From NCBI GenBank assembly GCA_942492815.1, contig OW818658.1, positions 5,996,284 to 6,060,283 on the forward strand: a stretch of 64,000 nt of DNA, read 5' to 3'. A model generated the notes under the pieces. That model ran no database searches. It was given only the letters and a program-made list of their open reading frames with translations, and had not been told where the DNA came from. This DNA comes from Candidatus Hydrogenedentales bacterium. Its GTDB lineage: Bacteria > Hydrogenedentota > Hydrogenedentia > Hydrogenedentales > JAEUWI01. Positions 1 to 63,530 of the stretch are shown here, piece by piece (positions within the stretch are counted from its first letter, which is position 1; every line of letters begins with the position of its first letter). A program made the translations under genes and the position numbers.

Positions 1-501
1 GCCTATCTCGGCGAGGGCCTCCGCACGGCCTCCGTGCGCAGCGTCATGGCCACCTTTACGCTCAAACTCAAACCGGCCCATCTGGACATCATCATGGACA
101 GCTTCCCCGGTTTCACGCGCATCCTCTGCCGCCAGTTTGCCCTGCGCCTGCGCGAGGCCAATGTCTTCATAAAGCGCTACCAGACCAACAACACCATGGC
201 TGTGGAGCAGCGATTCCTGAGCCCTGGCGAAGTGCTCGTGGACGCGGGTGCCCCGGCCGACAAACTATTCCAGCTCGTGGACGGCGTGTTGCTCGAAAAG
301 GGCGACCCCGATACGTCCATCCGAGCTTCGGACGACGGTCCCGTATTCGTCGGGACGCGTCCCTTCTTCAAAGGTGGTACCCATGAAAAGCGCGTAGTGG
401 CGAAGACGCAGGCCATAATCGTCGCCCTGGGCAAATCCCGCGAGGCGGCCATCATTCGCAACTTCCCCGAGCTCGCTCTGGAGTTGATCAGAGAGCCATA
501 G
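1..501 (+). CDS. cyclic nucleotide-binding domain protein, 5' partial (open at window start); phosphate-binding-cassette-like RTASVRSV and a second cNMP-like domain (GEVLVDAGAPADKLFQLVDGVLLE)
   Basis: Frame 1 is open from nt 1 with no upstream stop. The motifs fit the cNMP-binding (CAP-family effector) fold. The stop codon lies immediately before the start of repeat array A. Confidence 0.55.
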   Translation, partial: AYLGEGLRTASVRSVMATFTLKLKPAHLDIIMDSFPGFTRILCRQFALRLREANVFIKRYQTNNTMAVEQRFLSPGEVLVDAGAPADKLFQLVDGVLLEKGDPDTSIRASDDGPVFVGTRPFFKGGTHEKRVVAKTQAIIVALGKSREAAIIRNFPELALELIREP

Positions 502-1500
502 GGACGTACCGCCGCAAGCGCACTGCGAGCAGGAAAAGTGAAACCACGGGCACTCTCGCCGCGTCTTCGAGCGCAGCGCACCACAGCGCGGAGGCATGTC
601 CCTGGGGATGTAACGTCGCGACGTGAACGTCGAAGTTGCCAAACGGGAAGTTACTTTTCTTCCCCGTCATCCCACCCATCCACCGGGACAGGCCCACGCA
701 TCAAACACACGCCGTCAATGGTAAACGGCTTTTGCTGCATCGAGTTTTTCGCGCTATCGGACGACTATTGAGCGCGGGTCCGTCCCTTGGGGACGTACCG
801 CCGCAAGCGCACTGCGAGCAGGAAAAGCGAAACCACAGGCATTCTCGCCGCGTCTTCGAGCGCAGCGCACCACAGCGCGGAGGCATGTCCCTGGGGATGT
901 AACGCAGCGACGTGAACGTCGAAGGTGTCGAGCAGGAAGTCTCTTTTCTTCCCCGTCATCTCACCCATCTACTGGGACAGGCCCACGCATCAAACACACG
1001 CCGTCAATGGTAAGCGGCTTTTGTCGTATCGAGTTCTTCGCGTTATCGGACAACTCTTGAGCGCGGGTCCGTCCCCAGGGGACGTACCGCCGCAAGCGCA
1101 CTGCGAGCAGGAAAAGTGAAACCTCAGACACTCTCGCCGCTTCTACGAACGCAGCGCACCACAGCGCGGGGGCATGTCCCTGGGGATGTAACGCCGCGAC
1201 GTGAACGTCGAAGGTGTCGAGCGGAAGGTGACCTCTCATTCCCGTCATCGCACCCATCCACTGGGGACGTACCGCCGCAAGCGCACTGCGAGCAGGAAAA
1301 GTGAAACCTCAGACACTCTCGCCGCTTCTACGAACGCAGCGCACCACAGCGCGGGGGCATGTCCCTGGGGATGTAACGCCGCGACGTGAACGTCGAAGGT
1401 GTCGAGCGGAAGGTGACCTCTCATTCCCGTCATCGCACCCATCCACTGGGGACGTACCGCCGCAAGCGCAATGCGCGGAGGCAAAGCAAGGCCACAACGA
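501..1500. repeat. composite direct tandem repeat array A. Units are 184-296 bp and mosaic (a short unit with or without a ~100 bp insert), about 5 units. The last two 184-bp units are identical. Contains the palindrome CGCGACGTGAACGTCGAAG.
   Basis: Seen directly: the unit start GGGACGTACCGCCGCAAGCGCACTGCGAGCAGGAAAAG recurs at ~501, 797, 1078, 1263 and 1447. The array sits between the cNMP gene stop and the RAYT stop. Confidence 0.9.
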
Positions 1501-1503
1501 CAA

Positions 1504-2130
1504 TTACTTGTCGGGCAGCCATCGCTTGAAGTAGGTCCGATCACCGAGAGGTTTTCCATTTCGCGTATGTTGCCGGATCTTCTCCAGAAAGCCCTTGTTT
1601 TCCATCTCTACCGTCAGGCCGTCTCGCCATTCGGAATCCGCGAAATGGCTGAACCATCGATTCAAATCGAGCAGAGTATCGTGATCGCGACTGCCACAGT
1701 GCGCAGGAGCACTGGACCACGTGTAGTCCCACGGCAATGCAACCATTCCGGCTCTCACCGGATTCAATTCGACATAGCTCAACGCGCTAACTATGTGGTC
1801 CAAATCCATCGGGCAGGAGTAAAATCGCCCATGCCAGAGATGGCCAAAACGCCCGTACTTCTGATTGATGTAGCTGGCGTGCTCAAGCTGCGAAGACTTC
1901 ATGGCCCGGCTTAAGCTCTCCTTCTCAGCCGGTACTGCAACGATATGTATGTGGTTGGTCATGAGGCAGTAGCCGAGAATACGTACGCCGTATTCCTGGC
2001 TGTACTTCTCCAGGAGATTGATGTAGCGCATTCGGTCTTCGTCTTCGAAAAAGACCGGCTCTCGATTGTTTCCTCGATGGGTAATATGGTGCGCAACCCC
2101 GGGAAGCACTATGCGTTGTTCGCGTGGCAT
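1504..2130 (-). CDS. REP-associated tyrosine transposase (RAYT, TnpA_REP; IS200/IS605-like Y1 HUH transposase)
   Basis: 208 aa. Carries the HUH motif (MTNHIHIVAV) and a catalytic Tyr region (WHGRFYSCPMD), typical of the Y1 transposase / RAYT family. Flanked on both sides by repeat arrays. Confidence 0.85.
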   Translation of the reverse strand: MPREQRIVLPGVAHHITHRGNNREPVFFEDEDRMRYINLLEKYSQEYGVRILGYCLMTNHIHIVAVPAEKESLSRAMKSSQLEHASYINQKYGRFGHLWHGRFYSCPMDLDHIVSALSYVELNPVRAGMVALPWDYTWSSAPAHCGSRDHDTLLDLNRWFSHFADSEWRDGLTVEMENKGFLEKIRQHTRNGKPLGDRTYFKRWLPDK

Positions 2131-2159
2131 AGCAGCAGGGTATCGAGCATGCTCGGGTT

Positions 2160-3215
2160 TGTCAAGACTTGACGTGAACGTCGAAATCGCCGAGCGGGAA
2201 GTCTCTTTTCTTCCCCGTCATCCCACCCATCCACCGGGACAGGCCCACGCATCAAACACACGCCGTCAATGGTAAACGGCTTTTGCCGTATCGAGTTTTT
2301 CGCGCTATCGGACGACACTTGGGCGCGGGTCCGTCCCCCAGGGGACGTACCGCCGCAGAGGCCCCATACCAAATCAGAAAGCACCCGAATCTGATGCCTG
2401 TTCCAACAGGGCGCAGCGCACTACAGCGCGGGGGCATGTCCCTGGGGATGTAACGCCGCGACGTGAACGACGAAGGTGTCGAGCAGGAAGTCTCTTTTCT
2501 TCCCCGTCATCTCACCCATCCACCGGGACAGGCCCACGCATCAAACACACGCCGTCAACGGTAAACGGCTTTTGCTGCATCGAGTTTTTCGCGCTATCGG
2601 ACGACACTTGAGCGCGTGTCCGTCCCCCAGGGGACGTACCGCCGCAGAGGCCCCATACCAAATCAGAAAGCACCCGAATCTGATGCCTGTTCCAACAGGG
2701 CGCAGCGCACCACAGCGCGGAGGCATGTCCCTGGGGATGTAACGTCGCGACGTGAACGTCGAAGTTGCCAAACGGGAAGTTACTTTTCTTCCCCGTCATC
2801 CCACCCATCCACCGGGACAGGCCCACGCATCAAACACACGCCGTCAATGGTAAGCGGCTTTTGTCGTATCGAGTTCTTCGCGTTATCGGACAACTCTTGA
2901 GCGCGGGTCCGTCCCCAGGGGACGTACCGCCGCAAGCGCACTGCGAGCAGGAAAAGTGAAACCTCAGACACTCTCGCCGCTTCTACGAACGCAGCGCACC
3001 ACAGCGCGGGGGCATGTCCCTGGGGATGTAACGCCGCGACGTGAACGTCGAAGGTGTCGAGCAGGAAGTCTCTTTTCTTCCCCGTCATCTCACCCATCTA
3101 CTGGGACAGGCCCACGCATCAAACACACGCCAGCAAAGGCAATCGGCTCCTGCCGTATTGAGTTATCGCGCTATCGGACGACACCGGGGCGCGGGTCCGT
3201 CCCTTCGGCCATCCT
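2160..3215. repeat. composite direct tandem repeat array B. Same family and orientation as array A, about 4 units. The last unit overlaps the 3' end of the GH5-like gene.
   Basis: The same modules recur: GACGTGAACGTCGAAG, CATCCACCGGGACAGGCCCACGCATCAAACACACGCCGTCAATGG and GGGGACGTACCGCCGC. The array ends ~3215, inside the GH5 gene's last ~11 codons. Confidence 0.9.
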
Positions 3216-4387
3216 CTTGTTCGCTTCCTGTAGCACCTTCAGATAGCCGCTGCGTGCGTTGGTCGCGGTCACGTTCATCGAGGACTCCTGCCAGGAAAAA
3301 TCAAATACCCAGTAGGCCGCGAGCTGAACCGGACTTGCTTCGATCGCCTCGAAGAGCTTCAGTCCCTCGGCCATGGCGGTCTCGGGGGTCCAGGGTACTT
3401 CGTTGTCCGGCGGTGCACCGAACTCACCCACGAAGAGGCCCTTGCCCGCACCGCGCGACACCTGGTAGGCCGCATCGAGGATCTTGCCGTAGGGCACACC
3501 GACCTCCCCGAAGCGCTTGCCTGTGGGCTCCGGATAGATGTGAATGGAGATGAGGTCGTTCGGGTCGGGCGTCATGAAGGCGAGGTTCCCCTGAAGCTCT
3601 TCCACGCTGTCCTGGCCCCAGCTCAACTCGGTGTGTTGGTGGTGGGCCGTGGGACGGGGAAGGCTGTGGCCCGTGGTAATGGGGCGGGCCGTGTCAATCT
3701 TTCGGATCTCCACCGCGAAGGCCGTCGTGGCCGCGCGAATGATCTCGGAAGTCAGATCATCGGCCGCGCTCCGCGATTCGGGCGAGCCGAGTGAAGGAAC
3801 GATGGGCGGGCGGTTGTCGGCCGCGTTGGGCAGATCCGCCGCAAGGGAGTACTCATTGCCGAATTCCCAGGCCCAGATGGCGGGCGAATTCACATAGCGC
3901 GAAACCACCTGCTGCACGTAGGTGCGCATGAAGGCCTGGGTCTTACTCTCGGGATCGCCCCACTTGCTCAGAGGCTCGCCGACAAGGTCCGGCACGCCCG
4001 CCGTCCACCAGAACAGCGAGGGAATGAGCCCCACGCCGGTCTCTTCGGCGGCCTTGACCACGCCGTCCATCAGCGCGAAATACTTGTCCGGGTCGGATTG
4101 ATACAGGGCCCAATTGATGGCATAGAAGCCGCCAAACTGCAAGCGCACGAAGGGAATGTCGTGGGCGGCCAGCGTCTCGAAGCCCGCCCGGTACGACGTG
4201 TCCTCCGGATTCTCCAGACAGCGCGAGAAGGCGTCCATATAGTTCACACCCAGGGCGCGGATGGGCTGGCCGTCTTTCAGAATCACGCCACCCTCACCAA
4301 TGCGCAAGCCGGGAATCTGCGACTCCTGGGCAACAACAGCGATGGAAACGGCGGCGGCGAGGAACGCCGCGAGGTATTTTAGCTGCA
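3171..4387 (-). CDS. secreted glycoside hydrolase, clan GH-A (GH5-like; cellulase/mannanase type)
   Basis: Signal peptide MQLKYLAAFLAAAVSIAVVAQ at the chosen start. WEFGNE catalytic-acid motif typical of clan GH-A. The ORF-track start at 4562 would run through the hairpin repeat, so the Met at 4387 was chosen. Confidence 0.7.
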
Positions 4388-4408
4388 TGGCTGATTGGGT
4401 GCTTTCTG

Positions 4409-4507
4409 GTACTACAGGGACATCAGAGACGACAGGGACTACAGATTGAGCTTGCGGCGGGCAACATCTATTTCCTGCCGTCTCTGTAGTCTCTGCCGTC
4501 CCTGCAA
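4409..4507. repeat. REPIN-like hairpin element, copy 1: two inverted arrays of 3-4 copies of the 9-mer NNCAGRGAC, separated by a ~25 nt spacer
   Basis: Left arm TACAGGGAC ATCAGAGAC GACAGGGAC TACAG. Right arm is the reverse complement of TGCAGGGAC GGCAGAGAC TACAGAGAC GGCAGG. Intergenic. Confidence 0.85.
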
Positions 4508-4533
4508 ACTCGAGGAACCAGCCTCGGTGTATT

Positions 4534-7500
4534 TTAGCTCCGCCGATAAAGCGGATCGGCACCCAGCGTACCTTTCAGGCTCTCGAGATAGTTTGGGTGC
4601 TCCAAGCGGTATAGCTCTGCCTTGGCCTCTGCGAGGCGTCCGACGATGTCGAGGCGTTCGGCCTCTTCGACGTAGTTGGGCTTCTCCAGGAACGCCGAGA
4701 GGTTCTTGATGTGCCGTTTCCACAGGGCGCAGTCGCGCTCCTGCTTGATTCGGAGGCGCTCATGATACCAGTCACTTTCCATCAGGTACTCGCGGGTGAA
4801 AAGCTTGCGAATTTCCGGGTCCTGCACCGACTTGCCCTCATAGTGACCATGCACCATGATGTGGAGGAGGGCCGCCAGGGGCGGGCAGGCCGCCGTGATG
4901 CTGCCGTCGTCGAAGAAGGCCTGGGCGCAGCGCTGCTGGGCCTCCGTGATATTTTTGATACCGTCCACGTAGGCGTCCATGTCCTGGAGCTCGGGCCGGA
5001 GCATTTCGTCGTTGAACACCGTCGAGGGACTGTCAAACACGCGGCCGAAGTAGTGGCTCAGGAAGGTGCGGGTCATGCGGTAACCCAGGCGGCTCGCCAG
5101 GATCGTCTCGCCCTGGTATTCGAAGTCATCCACTTTCTCGAAGCACCCTTCGCGGAGCAGGTGTGCGGGATCCCGCTCCACTTCGGAAAGGCGGCACCAC
5201 ACTTCGGGAATCAACAGGCTCACGTCGTGGTCCACGCGATACTTCGGGCCGATGTAGCCCGCCGCCGTGGTGAAGCTCTTGTATTCCGTCAGGATGTACG
5301 ACACCAGTGCGTTGTTCAGATCGCTGGTGGGCGTGAGGCAGTTGAAAGGCCCCTTGGTCAGGGCGCCTTCCGATCCCGCACCCGTGGTCGAGGGTGACTT
5401 GCCGGTCAAGCTGGCGATGAAGTCCATGAAGAGCTCCGGGAGCTCCTGGTGGTGAATCGGGTTGTAGACCGCCAGCGGGCGGATCCCGGCCTTCACGTCG
5501 GGCGGGTTATTCCGCCGGCCGGGCAGCACGGCATTCACCGGGTGTAGCACGGGCTTGTCCATGGGCACGCGGCGGTGAAGGCGCGTGGCCACTTCGCCGA
5601 TGTATTTGTCCCGCGGGTTGGTCAGATCGGGGCGCAACTGCAGATAGCGCGGGTTCTTCGACGGCGCGCCATCCACGATGCGCGGGTGTGCCGACGACAC
5701 GAAGTATTCTATATCGTCGCTGTCCGCCACGCGGTTGATCAAATCCTGCATCGGCTGGCTGTAGGCCTGGAAAGTGATCGTGTGCTGCTGTAGCTTCCGG
5801 GCGTCTTCGCGGGTCAGGGGCTCGAAGTTGGAGATGAAGTTCTCGTCTTCCGAGAGGTCCCGCTCCGTCTGTTTGTCGTGGCCCCGGTGGATCGCGTCGT
5901 CGGGACGCTGGAACAGGCGCATCTCGCAATTGTCCACGATCTTGACGCTCGGGTTCTTGTACTCCGGGCAGAGGTGCGAGAGGCTACTGGCCGGTACCAC
6001 CACCGACGCGGAGATATCGTCTTCTTTCTGAATCTTCGCCGCAGGCAGGAAATCCTGGCGCAGCTTGTAGGTGCGCCACGACCCGTCGCTCACCAGGCCC
6101 ACGCGCAGATAGCTCGCCACCAGCTTGCGGCCGTTGAACTTCAGCTCATGGCCCGGCTTGCCGTTGATCACGTCGGCGCTGAAATGGCTGCGCCAGTCCT
6201 CGCCCCACTCGGGGCGGTAGAAGCGCTTGATGATGAAGATCATCGCCTTCACATAGTCCGGGATCGTGTTGAGCCAGGCGTTGTACTCGGGCGTGTAGTC
6301 CTCTTCCGAGGGTGTCAGCAGCCGGATCACCGAACCCAGCGAACGGTTGGCCGCCAGCAGGGGACGGCCCTTGGATACGATGCGCTTGTCCTGGAAGCGA
6401 TCGCTGAAATGATGGGCCATGACCGCCTGAATGCGATTGAGATCTTCCTTGTAATCGGCCACGAAGAAGGGGCCGTAGTGCACGGCATCCAGCAGGGATT
6501 TCGAGATCTCGGACTTGCCGCCGCCCGACACGGTGCAGGGCTTGTGACAGAAGGTGCCTTCCACGCCCGTGCCCACCAGACGCCAGCTCGGGGCGCCGGG
6601 GTGCTTTTCCATGTGGACGTTGTAGCCGTCCGGGTTGAGGTACACGTAGCCCGGCCGCAGGGGGATTTCCTGCTCCACGCCGTCCCGCTCCCAATACACC
6701 CGCTGGGTATTGAGATCGATATGGACGTTCTCCGGCACGTAGATGACGTCCGGGTAAGCCCGGTCGACGGCATAGCCCTCGGGCTGTACCTCCATCAGCT
6801 CGCCATACTTGGCGACCATCTCGTCAAAGCCGTGGCCTTCCTTGGTATAGCGGAAGTCCATGAAGAATTTATCGCCCAGGTTGAAACGGGCGTAGGCCAG
6901 CGCACCGCCCGCGTGCTCTTCTTCGCAGTTGCCGTAGAGGTTCGCCGCATAACTGAGCTGGGTTTTCACTTCCTTCTTGCAGTAACCAAAATAGTTGTCC
7001 GCAATCAGCGTCACCATCACGCCCCGGTCGTCGCGGCAGGCAATCTTGAAGGCGTTGCCGTCGTTGTACAACTCGCCCTCGTCCTTCCAGCACATACCCT
7101 CCTTGCGCTGGCGCTCCGTGGCGTCGTCGAAGTAAGGAAGCCCCAGTTCCTTCTTGCGCAGGTGGGTCAGGTGTGGGGCCAGCACCACGCAGCCCGTGTG
7201 GCCCGTCCAGTGCTCCGCATCGAGGGCGGCATCATTTTCCGCCAGTGTCGGATCGCCCGCGTTGCCGAAAATGGTTTCCACGAAGTCGAGGTTGCTCACC
7301 AGGCTGCCCGGCACGAAGAACCGGGTCTCCATCGTCTTCGCGGGGAGCAGGCCCGGGATCTCGGCCGAGACCAGCGGCCGCATCATGAGCGACACCATCG
7401 TGTGGGCCTGATCGTCCTCTTCAGCGAGGAAGGGCAATTGGAGCAGGTCGCGCGGCGGGTTCAGCGCCGCCACCATCAGATTCCCGAAGACCCGCTTCGG

Positions 7501-8001
7501 CACTTCCTTCTTGTCCAGCGGTACGGGCAGGCCCCCGTCCGCCACGTGGAAGACGCCTTTCGTCGTGCGCCGGTCGCTGCTCGGGTTGTGCAGCACACCT
7601 TGGGCAATCCGGTAGGAGGACACACACCCGTTCTTGAAGCAGTGCCCGTCCACCGGAAGAGAGAGTTCCCGTGCGAGGCCCGGCCGGTCCAGTACGAACG
7701 TGGTGCTCGGCAGGCGCAGCGGCGCGTGGAGCGTCTCTCCGGCCAGGTACTCCTCCAGAAACGCCTGGATGCGCTGGTCGATGGGGCACAGGTGGCCGCG
7801 CAGGAGACGGCTCTTTTCCTTGTAGCTCTGGATGAGCCCGTCGGTGAGGCCGAGGAACTCGGTGCTGGCCTTGGTATAGGTCGGCAGATCCAGGGCGGCC
7901 AGTTTCAGGCTGATATAACGGACCAAATGCCGGCGTTCGTAGGGCTGGGTATGCCCTTCCTGTAGAAAGGGTAATCGGGCGGTCTGGTTACCTTGCGTCA
8001 C
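4534..8001 (-). CDS. large conserved cytoplasmic protein (1155 aa); possibly a PPi-dependent phosphoenolpyruvate carboxykinase family member (tentative)
   Basis: Single uninterrupted 1155-aa ORF with globular, non-repetitive composition. The size matches the ~1150-aa PPi-PEPCK family, but I cannot verify motifs from memory. The antisense 695-aa ORF is rejected. Confidence 0.75.
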   Translation of the reverse strand: MTQGNQTARLPFLQEGHTQPYERRHLVRYISLKLAALDLPTYTKASTEFLGLTDGLIQSYKEKSRLLRGHLCPIDQRIQAFLEEYLAGETLHAPLRLPSTTFVLDRPGLARELSLPVDGHCFKNGCVSSYRIAQGVLHNPSSDRRTTKGVFHVADGGLPVPLDKKEVPKRVFGNLMVAALNPPRDLLQLPFLAEEDDQAHTMVSLMMRPLVSAEIPGLLPAKTMETRFFVPGSLVSNLDFVETIFGNAGDPTLAENDAALDAEHWTGHTGCVVLAPHLTHLRKKELGLPYFDDATERQRKEGMCWKDEGELYNDGNAFKIACRDDRGVMVTLIADNYFGYCKKEVKTQLSYAANLYGNCEEEHAGGALAYARFNLGDKFFMDFRYTKEGHGFDEMVAKYGELMEVQPEGYAVDRAYPDVIYVPENVHIDLNTQRVYWERDGVEQEIPLRPGYVYLNPDGYNVHMEKHPGAPSWRLVGTGVEGTFCHKPCTVSGGGKSEISKSLLDAVHYGPFFVADYKEDLNRIQAVMAHHFSDRFQDKRIVSKGRPLLAANRSLGSVIRLLTPSEEDYTPEYNAWLNTIPDYVKAMIFIIKRFYRPEWGEDWRSHFSADVINGKPGHELKFNGRKLVASYLRVGLVSDGSWRTYKLRQDFLPAAKIQKEDDISASVVVPASSLSHLCPEYKNPSVKIVDNCEMRLFQRPDDAIHRGHDKQTERDLSEDENFISNFEPLTREDARKLQQHTITFQAYSQPMQDLINRVADSDDIEYFVSSAHPRIVDGAPSKNPRYLQLRPDLTNPRDKYIGEVATRLHRRVPMDKPVLHPVNAVLPGRRNNPPDVKAGIRPLAVYNPIHHQELPELFMDFIASLTGKSPSTTGAGSEGALTKGPFNCLTPTSDLNNALVSYILTEYKSFTTAAGYIGPKYRVDHDVSLLIPEVWCRLSEVERDPAHLLREGCFEKVDDFEYQGETILASRLGYRMTRTFLSHYFGRVFDSPSTVFNDEMLRPELQDMDAYVDGIKNITEAQQRCAQAFFDDGSITAACPPLAALLHIMVHGHYEGKSVQDPEIRKLFTREYLMESDWYHERLRIKQERDCALWKRHIKNLSAFLEKPNYVEEAERLDIVGRLAEAKAELYRLEHPNYLESLKGTLGADPLYRRS

Positions 8002-12763: not shown

Positions 12764-12787
12764 GGGATTGCAGGGACGTATCCAGCG

Positions 12788-12841
12788 CGAATGCCGGGTG
12801 CCACCTCAATCGAGCGACGCTCGTTTGGGTGCGTTGAGGGG
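12788..12841 (+). terminator. conserved gene-end motif: CGAATGCCSGGGTGCCACCTCAATC, then a GC hairpin, then GTTTGGGTGC
   Basis: Directly downstream of the YfiT stop. The same motif recurs at 22620 with a different but still palindromic hairpin sequence (covariation). T-rich tail. Confidence 0.4.
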
Positions 12842-13039
12842 CTTGGATCCGCATTCAACAACGAAGCTTTCAATCCGGCTTGTGGACCTCGGAAGGGTAA
12901 GGCGACTTGGACCCAAATCCATCAACCCATCCACAGGGACGGGCACGCGCGTTGACGGTCTCGCTGCGCGGTATAGACACCTGAAAACTACCGCAGAGCA
13001 TGTACACGGAAAAGCGGCGGGCGCGAGTCCGTCCCTTCC

Positions 13040-14419
13040 CTACGCCATCGCCGACAGCAGTTCGTAGTGGCGCTTTCGATAGCGCGCCAGGGTTTCGGCG
13101 TGGTCTGAGGCACCCGCAAGATTGTTTCTTTCCCATGGGTCATGACCCAAGTCGTACAATTCTTCCGCGCCGGGCGCGCCGTCGATCCAGCGGATATACT
13201 TCCAATCGCGCGAGATGACGCCCTCACTCCTGGGAATCTGGGGGTGCTTGAAGTGGTGATGGTAGAGACAATCGTCCCGCCATTCCAGGGGCTGGTCCTC
13301 CATCAAAGGTCGCAGGCTCCTGCCCTGCACGCGCTCCGGAATCGCGATGCCCGCGAAGTCCAGAATCGTTGGCGAGACGTCCAGTTCATTCACCAGGCGA
13401 TCCACGGTAACGCCTCGGCGCGTGGCGTCGGCCTGGGGGTTGAAAATGATCATGGGCACGCGGATGGAAAGTTCGTAGGCGTACCACTTGCCCTCCAGGC
13501 CGCGTTCGCCAAGGAAGTAGCCGTTGTCGCCCAGATAGACGATGACGGTGTTGTCGGCGGCACCGCAGCGGGCCAGGGTCTCGCGCAGGCGACCGATATA
13601 AGCGTCGATGCCGGTGATCGTGCGGTAGTAATTTTTCACCGACTCCTGGAAGCGCTCCGCACCGCCGAAGTTGTGCTTGAAGCGCCGGACGCCCTCGCTG
13701 TCCTGCAGGAAGGGCGGAAGCACTTCGAAACCACCCGCCTCCGAAGCGGCGGGATCGGGCACGTTCTGATCGGCGTAGAGCGATTGAAACTCGGGCGCGG
13801 GCTGATAAGGTTTCTCCGCGTAGTCCAGGGCGTGAGGCGATTGAAAGCCAAGGGAGACGCAGAAAGGGCGGCCCGCCGCGACTTCGGCCTCGATAAATCG
13901 CTCCGCCGCTTCGGTGTGGAGGTCATCGGCATGACGCGCGCCCGAATTGTCCTTCGGAAAATACAGGCCACCATGGGCCGGCGCCTGAACGACGTCAAAC
14001 GCGCCTTCGGCCGCGCCGTAGCCGTTCACGCCATGCTTCCCGAAGCACCCCGTGCGCCAGCCCGCCGCACGAAACTGATCCGGATAGCTCGCCTTCTGAT
14101 CTTCATCGCGAATGGCCGTGGCGAAATCGATCACACGGTGTCGCGCCGGGTGCATGCCCGTGAAGATACTCGCCCGGCTCGTGCAGCAGATTGCCGTGGT
14201 GACGCAGGCGTTGGTAAAGCGCACCCCCTCCGCCGCGAGGCGATCCAGATTGGGCGTCTGGAGAAAGGGATGGCCCGCGCAACCCAGCGCATCCGCGCGA
14301 TGGTCGTCGCCCACGATCACAACCACGTTCATGGGCCTGGGCTGGGCCGTGGCGGGTAATGCGGCCAAGGCGGCAGCGCCGCCGCACGCGGTTAAGAAAT
14401 GCCTTCTGGAAAACTGCAC
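13040..14419 (-). CDS. sulfatase (arylsulfatase family), TAT/Sec-secreted
   Basis: RRHFLTACGGAAALAALPATA twin-arginine signal. C-T-S-R-A-S formylglycine motif (CCTSRASIFTG). Sulfatase N-domain motifs are present. Confidence 0.85.
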   Translation of the reverse strand: MQFSRRHFLTACGGAAALAALPATAQPRPMNVVVIVGDDHRADALGCAGHPFLQTPNLDRLAAEGVRFTNACVTTAICCTSRASIFTGMHPARHRVIDFATAIRDEDQKASYPDQFRAAGWRTGCFGKHGVNGYGAAEGAFDVVQAPAHGGLYFPKDNSGARHADDLHTEAAERFIEAEVAAGRPFCVSLGFQSPHALDYAEKPYQPAPEFQSLYADQNVPDPAASEAGGFEVLPPFLQDSEGVRRFKHNFGGAERFQESVKNYYRTITGIDAYIGRLRETLARCGAADNTVIVYLGDNGYFLGERGLEGKWYAYELSIRVPMIIFNPQADATRRGVTVDRLVNELDVSPTILDFAGIAIPERVQGRSLRPLMEDQPLEWRDDCLYHHHFKHPQIPRSEGVISRDWKYIRWIDGAPGAEELYDLGHDPWERNNLAGASDHAETLARYRKRHYELLSAMA

Positions 14420-14455
14420 GGTTTTCTCCGTGGCGGCGCGACGGCCGCCGATTCT

Positions 14456-14516
14456 ATCGGACTGATCAGACTGATCGGACCGATCAGATCAGTCCAATCC
14501 GTCTGACCGGTCGGAT
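14456..14516. repeat. GATC-rich palindromic element (GATCAGAC(T/G)GATCGGACCGATC family), copy A; overlaps the stop of the downstream minus-strand gene
   Basis: ATCGGACTGATCAGACTGATCGGACCGATCAGATCAGTCCAATCCGTCTGACCGGTCGGAT. It encodes the C-terminal SDRSDGLD plus the stop of the 14489 gene. Confidence 0.85.
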
Positions 14517-16303
14517 AGGCTATATTGTTCTGGCACCACACCATCGCGCAGGCCGGCAAAGTATCCCGCCGCCGCCGCCATGGCTCCGCGACCGCATTCG
14601 CGCCCGATAGGACGGCTTGCCACGGTGTCTACCCGGGGGTGAACGCCACACATCAACCGCCCGAGCCCGCCATCGTCCGCGATATCCTGATAGGTCGCCC
14701 ATTGGAGGGTGACGGGTTCCGAAGGGGCCTCATCGAAAGGCAACTCCGTCACGATCCACTCCATCAAGCCGCCGGGCACGTAGACGTCCTCCGTATACGC
14801 CTCCATCACTTCCTTGAAGCTCCAGCCGAAGGCCGCATGTCCGGAAGTGTAACCCGGGAAAGGTGGCGTTACAAACGTCGGATGCTGATAGGGCATCCAG
14901 TCCTCCGGAAGCATCCAGCCCACGCCCGAATAGGGGCCACGCCACGCCTTGATCTTTACCCTGCCCACCTGCTCGCCCTCGGGCCCCGCGAGCGGGTCGT
15001 CCTCGCCGATTAACTCCACCACACCTTCGCGCAGGGGCAGTTGGTTGTACTGGCCGAGCCAGCGGATCGCTGTGATGGGGCGCACCCAGTCGTATTGGCG
15101 TTTCACGTCCCACACCGCGATCGCCGTGTCGTGCATGGCGCCGCCCAGTGCGAAGTAGAGCTTCACATCGTATTCGAGATCGTGATGCGCGGGCTTGTTG
15201 GCTGGTTGTGCGTTGACGAGGCCCCCGCCCGCCAGCACGTCGGTCGCGATCTCGAACCACCAGGGCCCCGGCATGTTGAAACGGTTCCCGTCGAGAAAGG
15301 CCGCCTGCGCCCGGTAGTAGTCGCCGCGCCGGACAAAGTTGTCGGCGTAGGCCTCGCCCGTGGCAGGATTCACGGGGTGCCCCGTGCCGTCGTCGGTGGG
15401 AAAAGGATTGTTTCCGCGAACACCCGGCGAGATGTTGATCAACTCGCTGCCCAGACCCTCGGCGGGATCGAGGGACGCGCTGTAGACCAGCACCTCCATA
15501 AAGTTGTCGACAAATTCCCCCATGGTGGCGCCGCCGAATTGAGGCGGCGCACCGGGGTCGATGCGGAGACCGGACTCGTCGTAGGGCGCGAGGGCGAAAG
15601 GCGTCACGAAACACCATTGGGGCGTGAGGAATGGTTGCACCTCGCCGTCCGGCATTCGGATAGGCTGCCAGGCATTGATATCCATGATGGCGGGCGTCCG
15701 GTAGTCCAGTTCCAGCGGCGGATTCACCGACTCGTAGCCACTGGTGTCCCTGTAGTCACCCGGTTCATTGGCCCCGTCGTCCTCGCAGAAATCCAGCACG
15801 ATCCGGGCAATTTTCGCGCCCAGCGCCTGCGCGGGGGATGGCCTGGGATTGCCCAGTTCGTCGAGATAGCCCAGCGTCCGCATGTGTACCCGAAAGGCGG
15901 CATAGGCCTCATAGCCCGATGTCCCCGGCGGGTCGTCCGCCAGCACCTTGAAACCCTCGCGCAGTACCGGGTACACCGCGTGACTCAGGGTCTCCGCGAC
16001 ATTCTCCAGGGTCTTCGGCCCGGCCTCGCCCTTCAGCCGCTTGCCGGTGAAATAGCCCGACGCCGTATCGTCGTAGACGGCCCAAGCCTCGTACATCGCC
16101 GCGCTCGCGTGCCACAGTTTGCGCGCCTCCACCGTGGGTCCCTGCGCCTCCGCACGCGTCGCTTCGAGCGCGAGACGCATCCAAGCCTGAGAGAGGTCGT
16201 TCAGCCGCGCCGCGCGCTCGACCCTGGGGCAGCCACTGAGGCCCGCCAGAAGCCCCAGGCCGATGCAGAGGACTCCGAGTCTGCGGGTAAGCGGGTATTG
16301 CAT
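14489..16303 (-). CDS. vanadium-dependent haloperoxidase / PAP2-superfamily-like lipoprotein
   Basis: PGYTSGHAAFGWSF and CGVHPRVD motifs are characteristic of vanadium haloperoxidase/acid phosphatase. Lipobox LAGLSGC. Start taken at MQYPL. Confidence 0.6.
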   Translation of the reverse strand: MQYPLTRRLGVLCIGLGLLAGLSGCPRVERAARLNDLSQAWMRLALEATRAEAQGPTVEARKLWHASAAMYEAWAVYDDTASGYFTGKRLKGEAGPKTLENVAETLSHAVYPVLREGFKVLADDPPGTSGYEAYAAFRVHMRTLGYLDELGNPRPSPAQALGAKIARIVLDFCEDDGANEPGDYRDTSGYESVNPPLELDYRTPAIMDINAWQPIRMPDGEVQPFLTPQWCFVTPFALAPYDESGLRIDPGAPPQFGGATMGEFVDNFMEVLVYSASLDPAEGLGSELINISPGVRGNNPFPTDDGTGHPVNPATGEAYADNFVRRGDYYRAQAAFLDGNRFNMPGPWWFEIATDVLAGGGLVNAQPANKPAHHDLEYDVKLYFALGGAMHDTAIAVWDVKRQYDWVRPITAIRWLGQYNQLPLREGVVELIGEDDPLAGPEGEQVGRVKIKAWRGPYSGVGWMLPEDWMPYQHPTFVTPPFPGYTSGHAAFGWSFKEVMEAYTEDVYVPGGLMEWIVTELPFDEAPSEPVTLQWATYQDIADDGGLGRLMCGVHPRVDTVASRPIGRECGRGAMAAAAGYFAGLRDGVVPEQYSLSDRSDGLD

Positions 16304-32600: not shown

Positions 32601-32676
32601 ATTAGTCCGCGGGCCAATCAGACTGATCAGACTGATCGGACCGTTCCGATCAGTCTGATCCGTCCGATCGGTCTGA
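32601..32676. repeat. GATC-rich palindromic element, copy B
   Basis: CCAATCAGACTGATCAGACTGATCGGACCGTTCCGATCAGTCTGATCCGTCCGATCGGTCTGAT. Confidence 0.85.
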
Positions 32677-32778
32677 TGGGCATCGCTGCCACTGTCGGCT
32701 TCTCGCGATATCCTTCCCTTTTTCGCTATACTGTCGGGCCATTGCACACCCCAACCACCCGCCCGAGGAGTTTTCCCC

Positions 32779-34476
32779 GTGAATCCCTTTTCCAGCCTTA
32801 TCCCGCCGATCCTGGCCGCTTTTCCCGACTTGAGCGCGGAGGATATCTCTTTCGGCCCGCCGCCGAAGCTCGAACTGGGCGATGTGGCCATTCCCATGTT
32901 CCTGGCGGCGAAGAAGCTGAAATCCGCGCCGCCGAAGCTGGCCGCCGAGATCGCGGAGAAGGTAGCTTTCGGCCCGGAAGTACTTGAAGCGAAGCCCATG
33001 GGGCCTTACCTGAACCTGAAACTCGATCGCGGGGCCTTCGCCCGGAAGATCGTGGGCGGCGTACTCGAAGCGGGCGACGCCTTCGGTGCGAACGGGATCG
33101 GCCAAGGCAAGAAGGTCGTGCTGGAGCACACCAGCATCAACCCCAACGCCAGCCCCCACGTGGGCCGGGCGCGCAACGCCATGATCGGCGACAGCCTCGC
33201 GCGCCTCTTCCGCTTCGAGGGCCACGACGTGGAAGTGCACTACTACGTGAACGACATGGGCCGGCAGATCGGCCTGCTCGTGCTCATCGCGGAAGAGCTG
33301 CAGAATCTCAAGTTCGAGCAGATCCTCGACGCCTACGTGGAAGCCAACGAGCGCGCCAAGGTGGACGAGGCCTTCGCCCAGGCGGGTTATGAGCTGCTTT
33401 CGAAAATGGAGCAGGGCGACCCTGAAACCCAGAAGAAATTCACCGCCGTCACCGACCTGTGCCTCAAGGGCCAGTTGGAAGTCTTGCACCGCCTCGGCGG
33501 CACCTATGACGTATTCGATCATGAATCGAAGTACGTGAAGGATGCGCGCCTCGACGAGATCGTGGCGAAGCTGAAGGAAAAGGACGCGGTCTTCATCGAC
33601 GAAGACCAGCGGCTCGTCGTGGACCTGTCCAAGCTGGGCTACACCCAGGAAGAGGGCCGCTATTTCGTGCTCCTTCGCGGCAATGGCAGCTCCATGTATG
33701 GCTTCCGCGATCTGGCCTACACGCTGGACAAGGAAGCCCTCGGCGCGGACATCAACCTCATGGTCCTCGGCGAAGATCACAAGCTCTACGCCCAGCAGCT
33801 CGCGCTGATCCTCGAAGCGGCGGGCCACCCGGCACCGGAGCCCATTTACTACTCCTACATCCTGCTGAAGAGCGGCAAGATGTCCACCCGTCAGGGCAAG
33901 GTCGTGCTGTTGTCCGACTTCCTCGACGAAGCCTCCGGCCTGGCCCGCGAGCGCGTGGCCGAGCAGTGCAAGGATCTCTCCGCCGAAGAGCAACACGCCA
34001 TCGCCGAGCAGGTCGCCGTCGCGGCCATCCGCTTCAGCGTGCTGCGGGTCACGCCCAACAAAAACGTGATCTTCGACATGGAAGAAAACATGAAGTTTGT
34101 CGGCGACACGGGCCCCTACGTACAATATTCCTGCGCGCGCATCAACTCCATCATGCGCAAGAACGACGGCGAAGTGTCCAACGCGCCTGCGGAGCTGTTC
34201 CCCGTCACCGCCGACGCCGAGTGGGCGCTCCTCACCAAGATCGCCGACTTCTCCAGCGTCGTCGCCAGCGGCCTCAGCCAGCGCACCTGCGCACCCATTG
34301 CAAACTACACCCTCGAACTCGCACGCTTGTTTTCCAGCTTCTACAACGACTGCCCCGTGCTCAAGGCAGAAAACGAAGCCCTGGTCACCGCACGCCTCCA
34401 GATCTGCAAGGCGACCTTGCAGACCCTGAAAAACGCCTTGGGCATTTTGGGGATTGCCGCGCCCGAGAGGATGTAG
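32779..34476 (+). CDS. argS: arginine--tRNA ligase
   Basis: 565 aa. HIGH-region HVGRARNAMIGD. Class-I aaRS architecture. C-terminal ...LGIAAPERM. Initiates with GTG in the sequence. Confidence 0.93.
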   Translation: MNPFSSLIPPILAAFPDLSAEDISFGPPPKLELGDVAIPMFLAAKKLKSAPPKLAAEIAEKVAFGPEVLEAKPMGPYLNLKLDRGAFARKIVGGVLEAGDAFGANGIGQGKKVVLEHTSINPNASPHVGRARNAMIGDSLARLFRFEGHDVEVHYYVNDMGRQIGLLVLIAEELQNLKFEQILDAYVEANERAKVDEAFAQAGYELLSKMEQGDPETQKKFTAVTDLCLKGQLEVLHRLGGTYDVFDHESKYVKDARLDEIVAKLKEKDAVFIDEDQRLVVDLSKLGYTQEEGRYFVLLRGNGSSMYGFRDLAYTLDKEALGADINLMVLGEDHKLYAQQLALILEAAGHPAPEPIYYSYILLKSGKMSTRQGKVVLLSDFLDEASGLARERVAEQCKDLSAEEQHAIAEQVAVAAIRFSVLRVTPNKNVIFDMEENMKFVGDTGPYVQYSCARINSIMRKNDGEVSNAPAELFPVTADAEWALLTKIADFSSVVASGLSQRTCAPIANYTLELARLFSSFYNDCPVLKAENEALVTARLQICKATLQTLKNALGILGIAAPERM

Positions 34477-34683
34477 GGGACGGACCCGCTCAAAGGCCCT
34501 TTGGTCTGGCGGCACGATCAGTCACGCCCATCAAAGTCACGCCAGAACGAAACACGCTACAGCGCGCGGGCCTGTCCTCAACGGGATCAGTGGAAGGGAC
34601 CGAGTGCAAGTCCGGCCTTTTTCGACAGACTGCAACTTTCAAATTCGGACGTAGAGCAGGCTCAATTTTGACTTTCAACTCAC

Positions 34684-37738: not shown

Positions 37739-38240
37739 CGCGGGACAGTCCCGAATGGCACTAACTTAAGGGCAATGCCTGGATGCTTCAACGGGTAACC
37801 TGGGGTGCCACCCTCAAACGCAATCGCGTAGCGATGAAGTTTGTGGGTGTTGGGATTTCACCGTGTGACACGATTTTCTTTGAAAATTGGAGCCTCTTCA
37901 CCCACAAGTCGCGACCGCCGGTGGCGGGGGTTCGAGAAAGAAAACGCCGGGCTGTAGTCTTCAGGCTGTAGGAAGTTGTGTTCGGCTATTGAGTGAACTG
38001 TGTTTGGTTAAAGTCACCTCACCCACAAAGTTCCCCCGCTTCGCTCCTCCCTTTGAGGGTGGCACCCGCAGGGCCCTAAGGGGATCTGGGTGGGGCTTGG
38101 GTCGGTTGAAGTCCGGTGTTTTCTTAGCAGCAGCTCCCCCGCTGCGCTCCTCTGCTTGAGGGTGGCACCCGCCATTAACTTCGAAAAGCTTAGAGCGCCT
38201 TTCTCTTATGTTAGTGCCATTCGGGACAGTCCCGAACGCG
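37739..38240. mobile_element. MITE-like non-autonomous element, ~500 bp, with ~28-bp terminal inverted repeats (CGCGGGACAGTCCCGAATGGCACTAAC / GTTAGTGCCATTCGGGACAGTCCCGAACGCG) and an inner inverted repeat (GGGGTGCCACCCTCAA / TTGAGGGTGGCACCC); no ORF
   Basis: Terminal inverted repeats seen directly. The GGGACNGTCCC palindromic core is shared with the tandem array at 57.1-57.8 kb. Additional GGGAC(A/T)GTCCC copies flank it at 37711 and 38309. Confidence 0.6.
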
Positions 38241-42906: not shown

Positions 42907-43533
42907 TTACCCCAGCTTTACCCGCTCCAGCGTTGCGTTCCACGGCGTGTCTTCCGTGCTGATCAGCGCGTAGCGCGCGAATCCCTCTTCCGCCATGAGC
43001 GATCCCGGCGCGACGAAAAGTGCACCGTCCACGTGGCGCGTGAAGAAATCTTCCGTGCCTCCGCTGACGATGATATCCGCGCGCGTTATCTCGCGCTGGC
43101 GTTTCAACTTTGCGACGGGCGTATCAGCGGTGATGACTTCCCGCGGATTACCGGGCGAACCGTGGCACACGATTCCCGAGAGCCCTTCCACGATAAAAGT
43201 GCGCGTCTTCCGCCAGTCGCGGAGCCGCTCGAGATTCTGGCTGCTCAGGTATTCATGGGCCGCGCGCAGCGCGGGAAGGAGCGCTTCATCGACCTTTCGA
43301 TCCAGCGTTTCCTGCTTGCGCGAATAGCGAACAACCATGCGATCCTTGTTGCCCTGCACGCAGATCACACCGTATTTTTCCAGCAACGCAATGACTTCAT
43401 TGCCCCCATCGCCGCCCATAATGGCGTCGCCCGTGTGCAGAATCGTCTGAATTCCGGTGTCCGCGATTGCGTTCAGCGCGCATTCGAGCGCGTTTTTGTT
43501 GCCATTGATGCTGCCAATTGCGGCGAAGATCAT
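42907..43533 (-). CDS. metallophosphoesterase (calcineurin-like, YfcE-type)
   Basis: ILHTGDAI, GNKD and IVCHGSPG phosphoesterase motifs. Confidence 0.7.
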   Translation of the reverse strand: MIFAAIGSINGNKNALECALNAIADTGIQTILHTGDAIMGGDGGNEVIALLEKYGVICVQGNKDRMVVRYSRKQETLDRKVDEALLPALRAAHEYLSSQNLERLRDWRKTRTFIVEGLSGIVCHGSPGNPREVITADTPVAKLKRQREITRADIIVSGGTEDFFTRHVDGALFVAPGSLMAEEGFARYALISTEDTPWNATLERVKLG

Positions 43534-46683: not shown

Positions 46684-46746
46684 ACTCCCAGAAAATGAAA
46701 ACGGCCTTCCGCCACATTGGCAGAGGGCCTCTAAATTTTCGGGCGC

Positions 46747-47817
46747 CTATTTTGTGTGCCCCAGGATCGCCTCTTCCTTGAAACTCGTCAGCATCACCGT
46801 GGCGCGCGAATCCGTCGTATAGACCACGTGGATTGTGCCGTCCTTCGCCTGGATCGCCATGGGATAGGCAAAGGTATTGCCCGGGGCGACGATATCGCGG
46901 CGATGGGGCCACGTCTTGTCGTTGTCCTCGGAAATCGCGATGGTCAGGGGAATCCGCTCGTTCATGTTGTCGTTGTAGGCCAGCAGCAGATGCCCGTTCT
47001 GCAGCTTGATGAAACCTACGGCCGCATTGGGGTTCGGAAACTGGGAATCTTTACCGCGTTTCCACGTCTGGCCGCCGTCATGCGATTCCGAGCGCACCAG
47101 ATAGCGGTTCGTGCTTGGTTCGTAGCCGCCACCCACGCGGCAATAAGCGATCAGGCAATCGTCCGTGATCTGCACCGCCTCGGGCTGGAGATTGCCCTTC
47201 TTCGACTTGATCCGCTTCGTCGGCGTCCACGTGCGCGTCTTCGGATCGTGCCGGAGGAAGTAGGACGTCGTGTCCCGACCGATCACCTCCCGGTCGCTGC
47301 CCGTCTCGTGGTAGACCGGCAACAGGTACTCGCCGTTGTTCAACACAATCGGACGGCCCCGCACCATCGTGCCCATTTCAAAACCCAGATTCATCGAATC
47401 GGACCACGTATGGCCACCGTCCTCGGAGATCTTGGCCTTGATGAGCGTCTCCGACCAGGTGGCGCCGAAACGCTGCACGTAAAACAGCCACACCAGACCA
47501 TCCGGCGCCTGCCACACGATGCCGTTACCCTCGCCCTGGAAAGGCGTGTCCGCCAGCAACTGCGGCTCCGACCAGGCCGTCTGCCCCGGCGAACGGCGGA
47601 TGCCATAGACCTTTGATTCGTCCTCATACTCGCCGCCGCCACCATAAAAAGTGATGTACAGATCGCCGTTGTCCAACTCCGTGATCGCGGCGGGGTGCTT
47701 ATAGGCCCCCGGCTTCTCGGTGCCGATCACCTTCTCCACGATGATGTCATCCGCCGCGAGGACGGGGACCGAAAAAAAGGCCAGCGCCAGCGCGCAGGAC
47801 AGGGAATTACGCCACAT
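46747..47817 (-). CDS. BNR-repeat sialidase/neuraminidase-like glycosyl hydrolase, secreted (paralog 1)
   Basis: BNR Asp-box motifs SEDGGHTW and SHDGGQTW. Signal peptide. ~65% identical to the adjacent paralog. Confidence 0.75.
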   Translation of the reverse strand: MWRNSLSCALALAFFSVPVLAADDIIVEKVIGTEKPGAYKHPAAITELDNGDLYITFYGGGGEYEDESKVYGIRRSPGQTAWSEPQLLADTPFQGEGNGIVWQAPDGLVWLFYVQRFGATWSETLIKAKISEDGGHTWSDSMNLGFEMGTMVRGRPIVLNNGEYLLPVYHETGSDREVIGRDTTSYFLRHDPKTRTWTPTKRIKSKKGNLQPEAVQITDDCLIAYCRVGGGYEPSTNRYLVRSESHDGGQTWKRGKDSQFPNPNAAVGFIKLQNGHLLLAYNDNMNERIPLTIAISEDNDKTWPHRRDIVAPGNTFAYPMAIQAKDGTIHVVYTTDSRATVMLTSFKEEAILGHTK

Positions 47818-47930
47818 GAAAGATACTCCTTGTTGGGGTCGATTGGACGTCATAGACACCGGGGTAGGATAAAGGGTGGCCGGGGCGAAACTCAATTAAA
47901 ACTCGAATTCACCACGTCTTCCCGCCGCGC

Positions 47931-57045: not shown

Positions 57046-57072
57046 CCCGTTATCCACATAGCACGTAAATCT

Positions 57073-63332: not shown

Positions 63333-63530
63333 GACCGAAGTAAGCCCGTAACATTCTACCCATCCACCGGGACGGGCACGCGCGTTGACGGCCACAATCA
63401 CGTATTTGGCCAATGCCGCGCGGCCGAAATCCGATAGTGGAACCGCGGACGCGCAAAGCTTACAATACAACCCCAATGTGGGAACCAAGGCAAAGCCAAT
63501 GGCCCGAAGCGATTTAAGGAGAGAGTTCGG

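Follow-up and report, generated by a model that had tools for sequence, protein, structure and literature searches.

Does a transposase gene that lies between two arrays of long direct repeats belong with those repeats, or did it merely land among them? The question is raised by a stretch of 64,000 nucleotides (nt), here called the window, from a Candidatus Hydrogenedentales bacterium (phylum Hydrogenedentota; GenBank assembly GCA_942492815.1, contig OW818658.1, positions 5,996,284 to 6,060,283), in which a gene for a Y1 HUH transposase resembling the REP-associated tyrosine transposases (RAYTs; REP, repetitive extragenic palindrome) is enclosed by two such arrays. Systems that couple a RAYT to REPs or REPINs have been studied mostly in Proteobacteria. 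Based on the computational analysis presented here we conclude, with a probability that we put at roughly 0.7, that the locus is of the TIRtron/REPtron type (TIR, terminal inverted repeat), that is, a RAYT-like Y1 HUH gene embedded in a cluster of its cognate non-coding mobile elements, and that 13 doublets of approximately 100 bp with inverted ends are probably the elements which the transposase mobilises.

The two arrays (501-1497 and 2167-3204) share one orientation and bracket the transposase gene (1504-2130, minus strand), the whole cluster covering 2.7 kb. A preliminary description of this DNA, made from the sequence alone, had placed an intact Y1 transposase antisense between two repeat arrays and had reported modular units with an optional insert, one pair of which was 100% identical, and all of this was borne out. 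Its unit lengths of 184-296 nt require correction: the units measure 185 and 289 nt (285-286 nt in their natural register) and are composites of doublets. Tandem Repeats Finder gave a period of 289 nt for 501-1265 (2.6 copies) and for 2171-3203 (3.6 copies), and a period of 185 nt for 1078-1486 (2.2 copies). Alignment of the units revealed an optional module of ~104 nt, two alternative segments of ~57 nt and a mosaic of variants; the units at 1078-1262 and 1263-1447 are identical at 185 of 185 positions, and an exact identity of 249 nt is shared between the arrays (974-1222 and 2814-3062). Fourteen sub-repeats GGGGAYGTAMCG and eight GACGTGAACGWCG hairpins, all on the plus strand, are found here and nowhere else in the 64 kb; the stem of the hairpin at 2460 is broken, a further correction to the preliminary description.

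The basic element within these units is a doublet of 100-102 bp with imperfect 15-nt inverted ends (GGGAC...GTCCC). The 15-nt core GGGACRTRCCSCCGC occurs 30 times in 501-3203, on both strands, as opposed to three matches in the remainder of the window, where 2.9 are expected, and a chance origin of the array cores is thereby excluded. The pattern GGGACN3CN3CGC-N60-90-GCGN3GN3GTCCC retrieves 13 doublets of 100-102 nt from the arrays, with 0 expected by chance, and among 110 distinct copies the doublet length is 100-107 nt. Two types can be distinguished on the transposase strand: the b-c doublet (GGGACATGCCCCCGC...GCGGCGGTACGTCCC), which carries one of two interchangeable spacers (V1 or V2), and the C-type doublet (GGGACGGACCCGCGC...GCGTGGGCCTGTCCC), which corresponds to the ~100-bp insert regarded as optional in the preliminary description. 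A C-type doublet, an 82-nt spacer containing an extra half-core and a small hairpin, and a b-c doublet together form one unit of 285-289 nt. The cores GGGACGTACCGCCGC, GGGACATGCCCCCGC and GGGACGGACCCGCGC are not self-complementary, possess no GT[AG]G foot and pair only with their partner ~72 nt away. The uniform orientation claimed previously is thus true of the units, while each unit is made of elements with inverted termini, and the contrast drawn with canonical REPs holds inasmuch as the units are long and direct, but not at the level of their ~101-nt building blocks. Since the direct units consist of doublets with inverted ends, in the manner of REPINs or of miniature inverted-repeat transposable elements (MITEs), inverted symmetry is present one level down. 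The features of the cluster, all on the minus strand, are as follows.

501..1497, array A: six complete doublets and one internally deleted remnant, with 82-83-nt spacers; the sense strand of the elements is the transposase strand.
501..602, b-c doublet V1: core overlaps the TAG stop of the cNMP-binding gene.
685..786, C-type doublet.
790..891, b-c doublet V1.
974..1075, C-type doublet.
1079..1180, b-c doublet V1: within the first identical 185-nt unit.
1264..1365, b-c doublet V1: within the second identical 185-nt unit.
1449..1497, remnant b-c doublet: c core intact (1449-1463), spacer internally deleted, b core degenerate; adjoins the transposase stop on its downstream side.
1504..2130, RAYT/TIRYT-like Y1 HUH transposase gene: 208 aa.
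2131..2166, promoter-like region: upper edge of a 675-nt gene cassette (1492-2166) common to locus L044.
2167..3204, array B: seven doublets and spacers, the first part being a spacer with a CGACGTGAACGTCG hairpin.
2236..2337, C-type doublet.
2342..2442, b-c doublet with the alternative spacer V2.
2525..2626, C-type doublet.
2631..2731, b-c doublet V2.
2814..2915, C-type doublet: start of the stretch 2814-3062 that is identical to 974-1222.
2919..3020, b-c doublet V1.
3103..3203, C-type doublet: the copy common to the syntenic locus L030; gives the GH5-like gene its end and stop.

The gene between the arrays is an intact open reading frame (ORF) for a Y1/HUH transposase of 208 aa. Y1_Tnp (E = 1.5e-14, residues 13-121) was the only family reported for it by a Pfam search, in which a C-terminal domain resembling a helix-turn-helix (HTH; Bac_DnaA_C, HTH_23 or HTH_28) was not found and the 70-aa tail, although kept among homologs, matched no family. 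The protein contains NHIH at residues 59-62, the catalytic Y119 within YVELNP, and WSS at 138-140; H60, H62, Y119, N123 and P124 are invariant in an alignment of nine homologs. In a comparison by eye with Table 1 of PMC6006769 these three motifs agree with those of subclass 2.1, to which the protein is thereby provisionally assigned. The best NCBIfam model was REP_Tyr_transpos, at 64.5 bits under its cut-off of 80, so that the equivalog threshold is not passed, while the IS200 model scored 19.6 bits (cut-off 55). A phmmer search of the PDB with the protein gave no match; a profile of nine sequences weakly matched the E. coli TnpA-REP structure 4er8 (E = 0.013), aligned across the HUH and Y motifs, and 2ec2 tied with it (same E-value, 18.0 as against 18.1 bits). 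The transposase is RAYT-like, and its closest homologs are annotated as Candidatus Hydrogenedentes.

Upstream of the gene, the minus strand reads TTGACA (2160-2165), 17 nt, TACCCT, 6 nt and then the ATG. TTGACA lies ~30 nt upstream of the ATG in the window and at L044, L001, L002, L004 and L072 (L numbers designate loci of other assemblies), and its conservation suggests a short-leader promoter; a strict sigma-70 consensus scan returned no promoter, and the promoter call derives solely from the TTGACA shared across loci. A tblastn search with the transposase found no second copy within the window; an ORF at 42907-43533, also of 208 aa, was considered and rejected, its sequence being unrelated.

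The association of the gene with the repeats recurs beyond the window. Transposase homologs of 64-89% identity in other Hydrogenedentota assemblies have homologous composites of 257-265 bp on one or both sides, in the same relative orientation, and the repeat family of the window flanks homologs at five other loci (L001, L002/L003, L004, L023 and L044), as one would look for in further transposase copies according to the preliminary description. At L001 (66% identity) the gene cassette lies exactly between two complete composites of 258-261 nt, with cores at 4647+, 4748-, 4804+ and 4907- upstream and at 5622+, 5723-, 5776+ and 5879- downstream. L004 (64%) has one unit upstream and two tandem units downstream; L002/L003 (69%) has a unit on either side, the downstream copy ending at the contig end; L044 (87-89%) has a spacer, a half-core, a b core, the gene and a full b-c doublet in that order, the upstream unit being partial; and L023, whose gene is a 41% paralog, has at least three tandem 264-nt units, downstream only. 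At every locus the direction from b to c is that of the gene, and in every genome the b-core pattern (GGGACATRCCYCCGCG) stands 75-78 nt from GGTACGTCCC. A hidden Markov model (HMM) derived from 17 composites of another genome aligns end to end with the units of the window (positions 2-265, E = 5e-10 to 2e-14), which indicates that the whole composite is homologous across genomes.

More distant paralogs have repeats of their own. At L069 (in the L004 assembly) and at L072, direct copies of a different composite family, peculiar to each paralog, lie on either side of the gene, and since the flanks of L004, L069 and L072 differ, each transposase paralog has its own repeat family. At L069 (GCA_019637335.1, 2000-4100; paralog P0017) a composite repeat with spacings of 110, 171 and 286 nt, containing AGTCCCCGGGGACT palindromes and GGTGCCTGTACCCG / CGGGTACAGCCACC inverted pairs, is present on both sides. 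At L071 (46% identity) an exact GGGACAG repeat of 26-27 nt precedes the gene, recurs at the gene's 3' end and is repeated in inverted form 36 nt later, which on the sequence is a textbook terminal-inverted-repeat layout around a gene. As a separate observation, the called gene of the TARA homolog at L002 ends at an in-frame TAG after ...LLVEM (5520-5531), past which the frame continues with C-terminal tail homology (NKGFLEQIRQHT...); since tail-homologous sequence continues in frame, this stop is recent or a sequencing error.

The termini of the doublets were analysed for pairing. Their 15-nt stems form in every single-strand fold, and RNAalifold, applied to 60 b-c and 50 C-type doublets on both strands, returned the terminal stem only; a conserved interior RNA structure was rejected on this basis. 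Co-variation was tested for the C-type termini only, those of the b-c doublets having been ascertained by the search pattern. Among 50 distinct C doublets 13 of the 15 terminal positions pair, mismatches are conserved at position 6 (G.T) and position 8 (A.C), and five copies carry a C-G to T-A double change at position 13. The paired cells amount to 665 of 750, compared to 655 ± 3 in shuffles, a value reached in one shuffle of 2000. Because the pairing exceeds that of shuffles the two termini of the C doublet co-evolve, and because the mismatches are conserved the left and right ends are distinguishable, like the ends of IS200/IS605 elements. The three nucleotides ahead of the composites are mostly YCA, in five solos of a single genome GCAGTCCC(Y)CA stands before the element, and at tandem junctions the sequence is GTCCC-TCA-GGGAC; target duplications were not evident in the flanks listed, for which no systematic test was made.

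An alternative explanation is that the units are mainly transcribed RNA elements (stabilisers of 3' ends, terminators or structured non-coding RNAs) which owe their conservation to a function as RNA, and that the transposase was no more than the agent that once spread them, or a bystander. Di Nocera et al. 2013 (PMC3733652) argue for the transcription of many REPs and for their action at the RNA level, the copies often sit in short intergenic spaces at the stops of convergent genes, the doublet length is kept while the interior sequence varies, and the C-type doublet on the gene strand folds more stably than shuffles (z = -4), the sole case to reach this value. Yet most doublets fold no better than shuffles, no interior structure is shared on either strand, a gathering search of Rfam 15 gave 0 matches in the whole window, and terminator-like sites in the region number five as against 3.6 in shuffles. 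As this explanation would also leave the fixed association and orientation with the transposase gene unaccounted for, we consider it unlikely, and the reading of the doublets as cognate elements of a RAYT-like enzyme is preferred.

Comparison of close relatives reveals that the location of the gene varies. Locus L030 aligns with window positions 1-791 and 2917-5514 at 87-91% nucleotide identity and has, between the same two genes, one unit and no transposase; a solo C-type copy lies ~2.9 kb away. At L044 the 675-nt gene cassette (window 1492-2166) is 83% identical and adjoins carA. As L030 is empty and the L044 cassette stands at carA, the location of the transposase differs between relatives while its embedding in units persists.

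Such differences in location, together with the gene-less syntenic site at L030, the b-gene-(b...c) layout at L071 and L044 and the presence of several paralogs per genome (one assembly has L004 and L069, another has L001 and L046), would also be expected if the gene and its flanking doublets were an autonomous, currently mobile insertion sequence (IS) of the IS200/IS605 kind, with gene-less doublets as its MITE derivatives, rather than a RAYT domesticated in a single copy. Near-identical pairs of gene copies were not observed, however, the paralogs sharing 41-66% identity with the window protein; the window lacks the upstream terminus; the motif is Y---NP and not the Y---Q of IS200 (Quentin et al. 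2018, PMC6006769); and the gene occupies a different position in the unit in each lineage, as would be expected from recombination more readily than from precise transposition. An autonomous element of this sort is therefore improbable, and a RAYT-like gene embedded among its cognate repeats is the interpretation that we retain.

The repeats themselves are dispersed. The hairpin motif GGGGATGTAACGNNGCGACGTGAACG, which is specific to the window, had no exact match among 185,579 species genomes, from which it follows that this collection does not include the source genome. A lineage-general doublet pattern was found at 39 genome loci (31 separate contigs of one Hydrogenedentota bin, 7 of another and 1 of a Lake Mendota bin), of which, among the fetched stretches, only one (L023) has a transposase gene, and a metagenome scan added 22 further loci, none with a transposase. 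Many copies in the first bin are full-length composites of 264 nt, with 70-77% identity to the reference unit, and several loci have tandem pairs with periods of 260-272 nt. Copies often occupy short intergenic spaces and abut the stops of convergent genes; real gene calls were used for this context, as a home-made greedy ORF caller gave many spurious "inside ORF" calls in GC-rich DNA, and from the crude calls only a trend was taken, in which element and convergent gene meet at their 3' ends. Beyond the arrays, HMMs and the C-type core pattern located two diverged solo copies and one partial copy in the window, so that the unit is not unique to this site; such uniqueness would have counted against the preliminary description.

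12764..13040, minus strand, solo decayed composite: fills a convergent intergenic space; complete C-type doublet (12936-13035), spacer start and a c-like core.
34477..34578, plus strand, solo C-type doublet: opposite orientation, one mismatch per core; abuts the stop of ORF 32779..34476 (plus strand), a mechanical call and one among several overlapping at that position.
63369..63405, minus strand, partial copy: 3' core of a C-type doublet and spacer start GTGGATGGGT.

The preliminary description had left open that the RAYT inserted into a pre-existing satellite with which it has no relation, and although L030 has the unit without the gene, the cassette common to L044 is just 675 nt long without repeat sequence of its own, and the gene interrupts a unit instead of being placed between units, this is very unlikely in view of the recurrence of the gene-repeat association across lineages (the same family flanks homologous genes at five other loci in a constant relative orientation, and paralogs have different private families) and of the solos and short arrays on dozens of contigs, which are unlike a locus-bound satellite. 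Equally remote is the explanation that copy number, identical units and mosaic are partly artefacts of assembly, for while the 100% identical 185-nt units and the 249 nt shared between the arrays are hard to assemble and many contigs of relatives end within these repeats, the units keep a consistent register and yet diverge in module content and at many positions, tandem arrays with periods of 260-270 nt occur in several independent assemblies, and the genes on either side continue as they do in the syntenic relative.

The alternative first raised in the preliminary description, an unusual REPtron-type architecture, is supported in substance by a RAYT-like gene, by the presence of the family at five other loci and by its dispersal. 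A mechanism may be envisaged for such a locus as follows. The HuH (NHIH) and Y---NP (YVELNP) motifs of the transposase are those of the class 2 TnpA-Y1 group (PMC6006769), and it should therefore cut and rejoin single-stranded DNA at cognate cores; by analogy with E. coli TnpA-REP and IS200/IS605 TnpA it would bind and cleave at the GGGAC cores and would copy or move doublets and composites into intergenic sites. The favoured insertion site would lie 3' of ...GTCCC-YCA, a motif that also forms the 3' end of the element itself, and because of this identity new copies would come to lie head-to-tail beside old ones, giving arrays of a single orientation. Homologous recombination and gene conversion between units would then expand, contract and reshuffle the arrays, and recombination of this kind could explain the mosaic as well as the two identical units and the 249 nt that the arrays on either side of the gene have in common. 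As direct repeats flank the gene it could be deleted, leaving a single unit as at L030, and recombination could re-integrate it at another unit, which may explain why close relatives have the gene at different loci in a constant orientation relative to the repeats.

Several points weigh against this interpretation. The cleavage, target choice and mobility that it proposes are all matters of inference, and the cores, being neither self-palindromic nor equipped with a GT[AG]G foot, may not conform to the E. coli model of recognition. Whole-doublet folding energies are mostly no better than those of shuffles (z +0.6 to -1.8), and the co-variation of the C-type termini fits hairpin pairing and two inverted protein sites alike. 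The upstream b core beside the gene is missing in the window, so that a simple TIR-gene-TIR arrangement is not intact, and a homolog of the P0010 type (L045/L046) has no cores nearby. The single unit at L030 could be a collapse of a short-read assembly, and the copy number of the source genome is extrapolated from 64 kb alone. A wider reading is that of an undescribed, phylum-wide REPIN-like system of the Hydrogenedentota, comprising (i) a TnpA-Y1 of a subclass reported without REPs; (ii) a two-doublet composite of 257-289 nt; (iii) self-adjacent insertion at GTCCC-YCA; (iv) a private family per paralog; and (v) a gene shuffled between arrays by recombination of its direct flanks. We advance this tentatively, the odds being somewhat against it; if true, it would offer a natural and tractable case in which to study how a TIR-flanked Y1 gene gives rise to repeats of the REP or TIR type.

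Other repeats of comparable appearance were encountered. An intergenic long-unit tandem array at 57030-57723 (231 nt x 3, with an extra partial copy near 57780) was rejected as a member of the same family because the unit HMMs did not match it, despite a shared GGGAC/GTCCC signature; it is built on the palindromes GGGACCGTCCC / GGGACGGTCCC, for which there are six exact matches, all in this array, where 0.1 are expected, and it has no adjoining transposase. A third dispersed family (14447-14529, 32608-32690 and 59443-59516) consists of 60-80-nt palindromes of 9-nt periodic ATCAGACTG/ATCGGACCG repeats, which resemble classical REP hairpins more than the doublets do; its sites lie between large predicted ORFs, each overlapping at least one mechanical ORF call. 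A 41-nt direct repeat (AGYTCCCCCGCTKCGCTCCTC...GAGGGTGGCACCCGC) at 38029-38069 and 38132-38172, 103 nt apart, has a 90% match in an unrelated metagenome contig (L057, 1152-1201), and its motif GAGGTGGCACCCGGC is also present inside the solo composite at 12.8 kb. Solo composites at L006, L013, L024, L031 and L043 (bin JAJRPE01) have a 5' flank of ...GGCAGTCCC(Y)CA and, at L024 and L031 at least, a 3' flank of GGGACTGCC...; the solos at L024 and L031 are thus nested in another GGGAC/GTCCC inverted pair, possibly a further element family or a preferred target.

Concerning the neighbouring genes, the arrays reach the stop codons on both sides, as first described. A gene with a cyclic nucleotide monophosphate (cNMP)-binding domain ends at 501, its TAG (499-501) overlapping the first core of array A, and the last doublet of array B supplies the final ~11 codons and the stop of a GH5-like ORF (3171..4562, minus strand). 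Directly downstream of the GH5-like gene, with a 29-nt overlap with its called start, is an ORF of 1155 aa (4534-8001, minus strand) for which no Pfam family was found at E <= 0.001. At 46743-49079 a tandem pair of paralogous 382-aa ORFs, 77-82% identical at the nucleotide level in aligned stretches, represents a recent gene duplication.

In this locus and its relatives a protein with the motif signature of subclass 2.1 (assigned by eye) is tied to an abundant and ordered non-coding family in an uncultivated phylum, and the elements concerned are marked by well-defined ends, by two doublet types that travel together and by a simple rule from which array growth could follow. The series from L071, with a TIR-flanked gene, through L044, with its b-gene-b...c order, to the gene-in-array arrangement of the window, L001 and L004 marks out a concrete path by which an autonomous element could become a domesticated gene accompanied by satellite-like repeats. 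The repeats are also of practical consequence, as they break Hydrogenedentota assemblies and rewrite the 3' ends of genes, exemplified by the last ~11 codons of the GH5-like enzyme. Full-text literature searches returned no account of these repeats or of Hydrogenedentes RAYTs. The locus may be compared with described systems.

With IS200/IS605 elements (IS608, ISDra2) it shares the Y1 HUH catalytic core, non-identical left and right ends (here the G.T and A.C mismatches at positions 6 and 8) and what looks like insertion on the 3' side of a short, specific sequence (YCA following GTCCC); it differs from them in having Y---NP in place of Y---Q, in falling far below the cut-off of the IS200 model (19.6 bits against 55) and in lacking tnpB and multiple identical gene copies. 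Bacterial MITEs such as Correia/NEMIS, RUP and ERIC are likewise non-coding, 70-300 bp long, bounded by terminal inverted repeats of 15-30 bp and located beside genes, but the likely mobiliser here is a Y1 HUH and not a DDE transposase, and the elements form ordered composites and tandem arrays. The REPIN-RAYT systems of Pseudomonas (Bertels and Rainey 2011, PMC3116915) provide a likeness in the form of a non-autonomous doublet of ~100 nt, made of two inverted short sequences and a spacer, which is dispersed, flanks the transposase gene and can form a long hairpin; solo doublets exist here too. The halves of a REPIN, in contrast, are palindromic REPs and its population is near-identical within a genome (PMC3116915), whereas the present composites are 70-77% identical to the reference unit, with largely conserved cores and freely varying interiors, and two distinct doublet types travel as one composite.

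REPtron/BIME clusters of E. coli and pseudomonads (Nunvar et al. 2010; Ton-Hoang et al. 2012; Messing et al. 2012, PMC3479197) resemble the locus in that a RAYT-type gene is flanked by its own dispersed extragenic repeats, with a private family per paralog, copies located after genes and clusters of alternately oriented short cores. They differ from it in the GT[AG]G foot and the hairpin formed by the core itself, neither of which applies to the 15-nt core described here, in a palindrome of 20-40 nt as opposed to paired cores ~72 nt apart, and in a period of about 80 instead of 285-289 nt with whole units direct on both sides.

Among described classes the TIRtron/TIRYT, a relative of REPtrons (Di Nocera et al. 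2013, PMC3733652), comes closest; it was equated with TnpA-Y1 subclass 2.1 by Quentin et al. 2018 (PMC6006769) and corresponds to the Group 1 RAYTs of Bertels et al. 2017 (PMC5581495). This is the largest of the RAYT-like subclasses, reported either to be devoid of REPs or to have inverted repeats that are sparse; no REP-like sequences were reported for subclass 2.1 by the former authors (PMC6006769), and only low-abundance flanking 16-mers were found for Group 1 by the latter. The likeness extends, on inspection by eye, to the NHIH motif (NHVH/NH[YF]H), to YVELNP (YIELNP/Y[IV]HLNP) and to the WSS tail motif, to a repeat start of GGGAC(A/G) that is close to the published TIR motif GGGGWSAS, to the dimers, clusters and moderately abundant families formed by published TIR repeats, and to the inverted repeat around the gene of the 46%-identical homolog at L071. 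It differs in that the protein has 208 aa compared to a median of 238 and lacks an HTH-like C-terminal domain by Pfam, in that no intact TIR pair surrounds the window gene, which only a c core (1449-1463) adjoins, and in the abundance of gene-less ~101-nt doublets, which are grouped into composites of 257-289 nt and into arrays running head-to-tail on either side of the gene. The general kind, a RAYT/TIRYT gene with cognate extragenic repeats, is thus a known one and the locus looks non-artefactual; what is new is the two-doublet composite of 257-289 nt, arrayed head-to-tail on both sides of the gene, in an uncultivated phylum.

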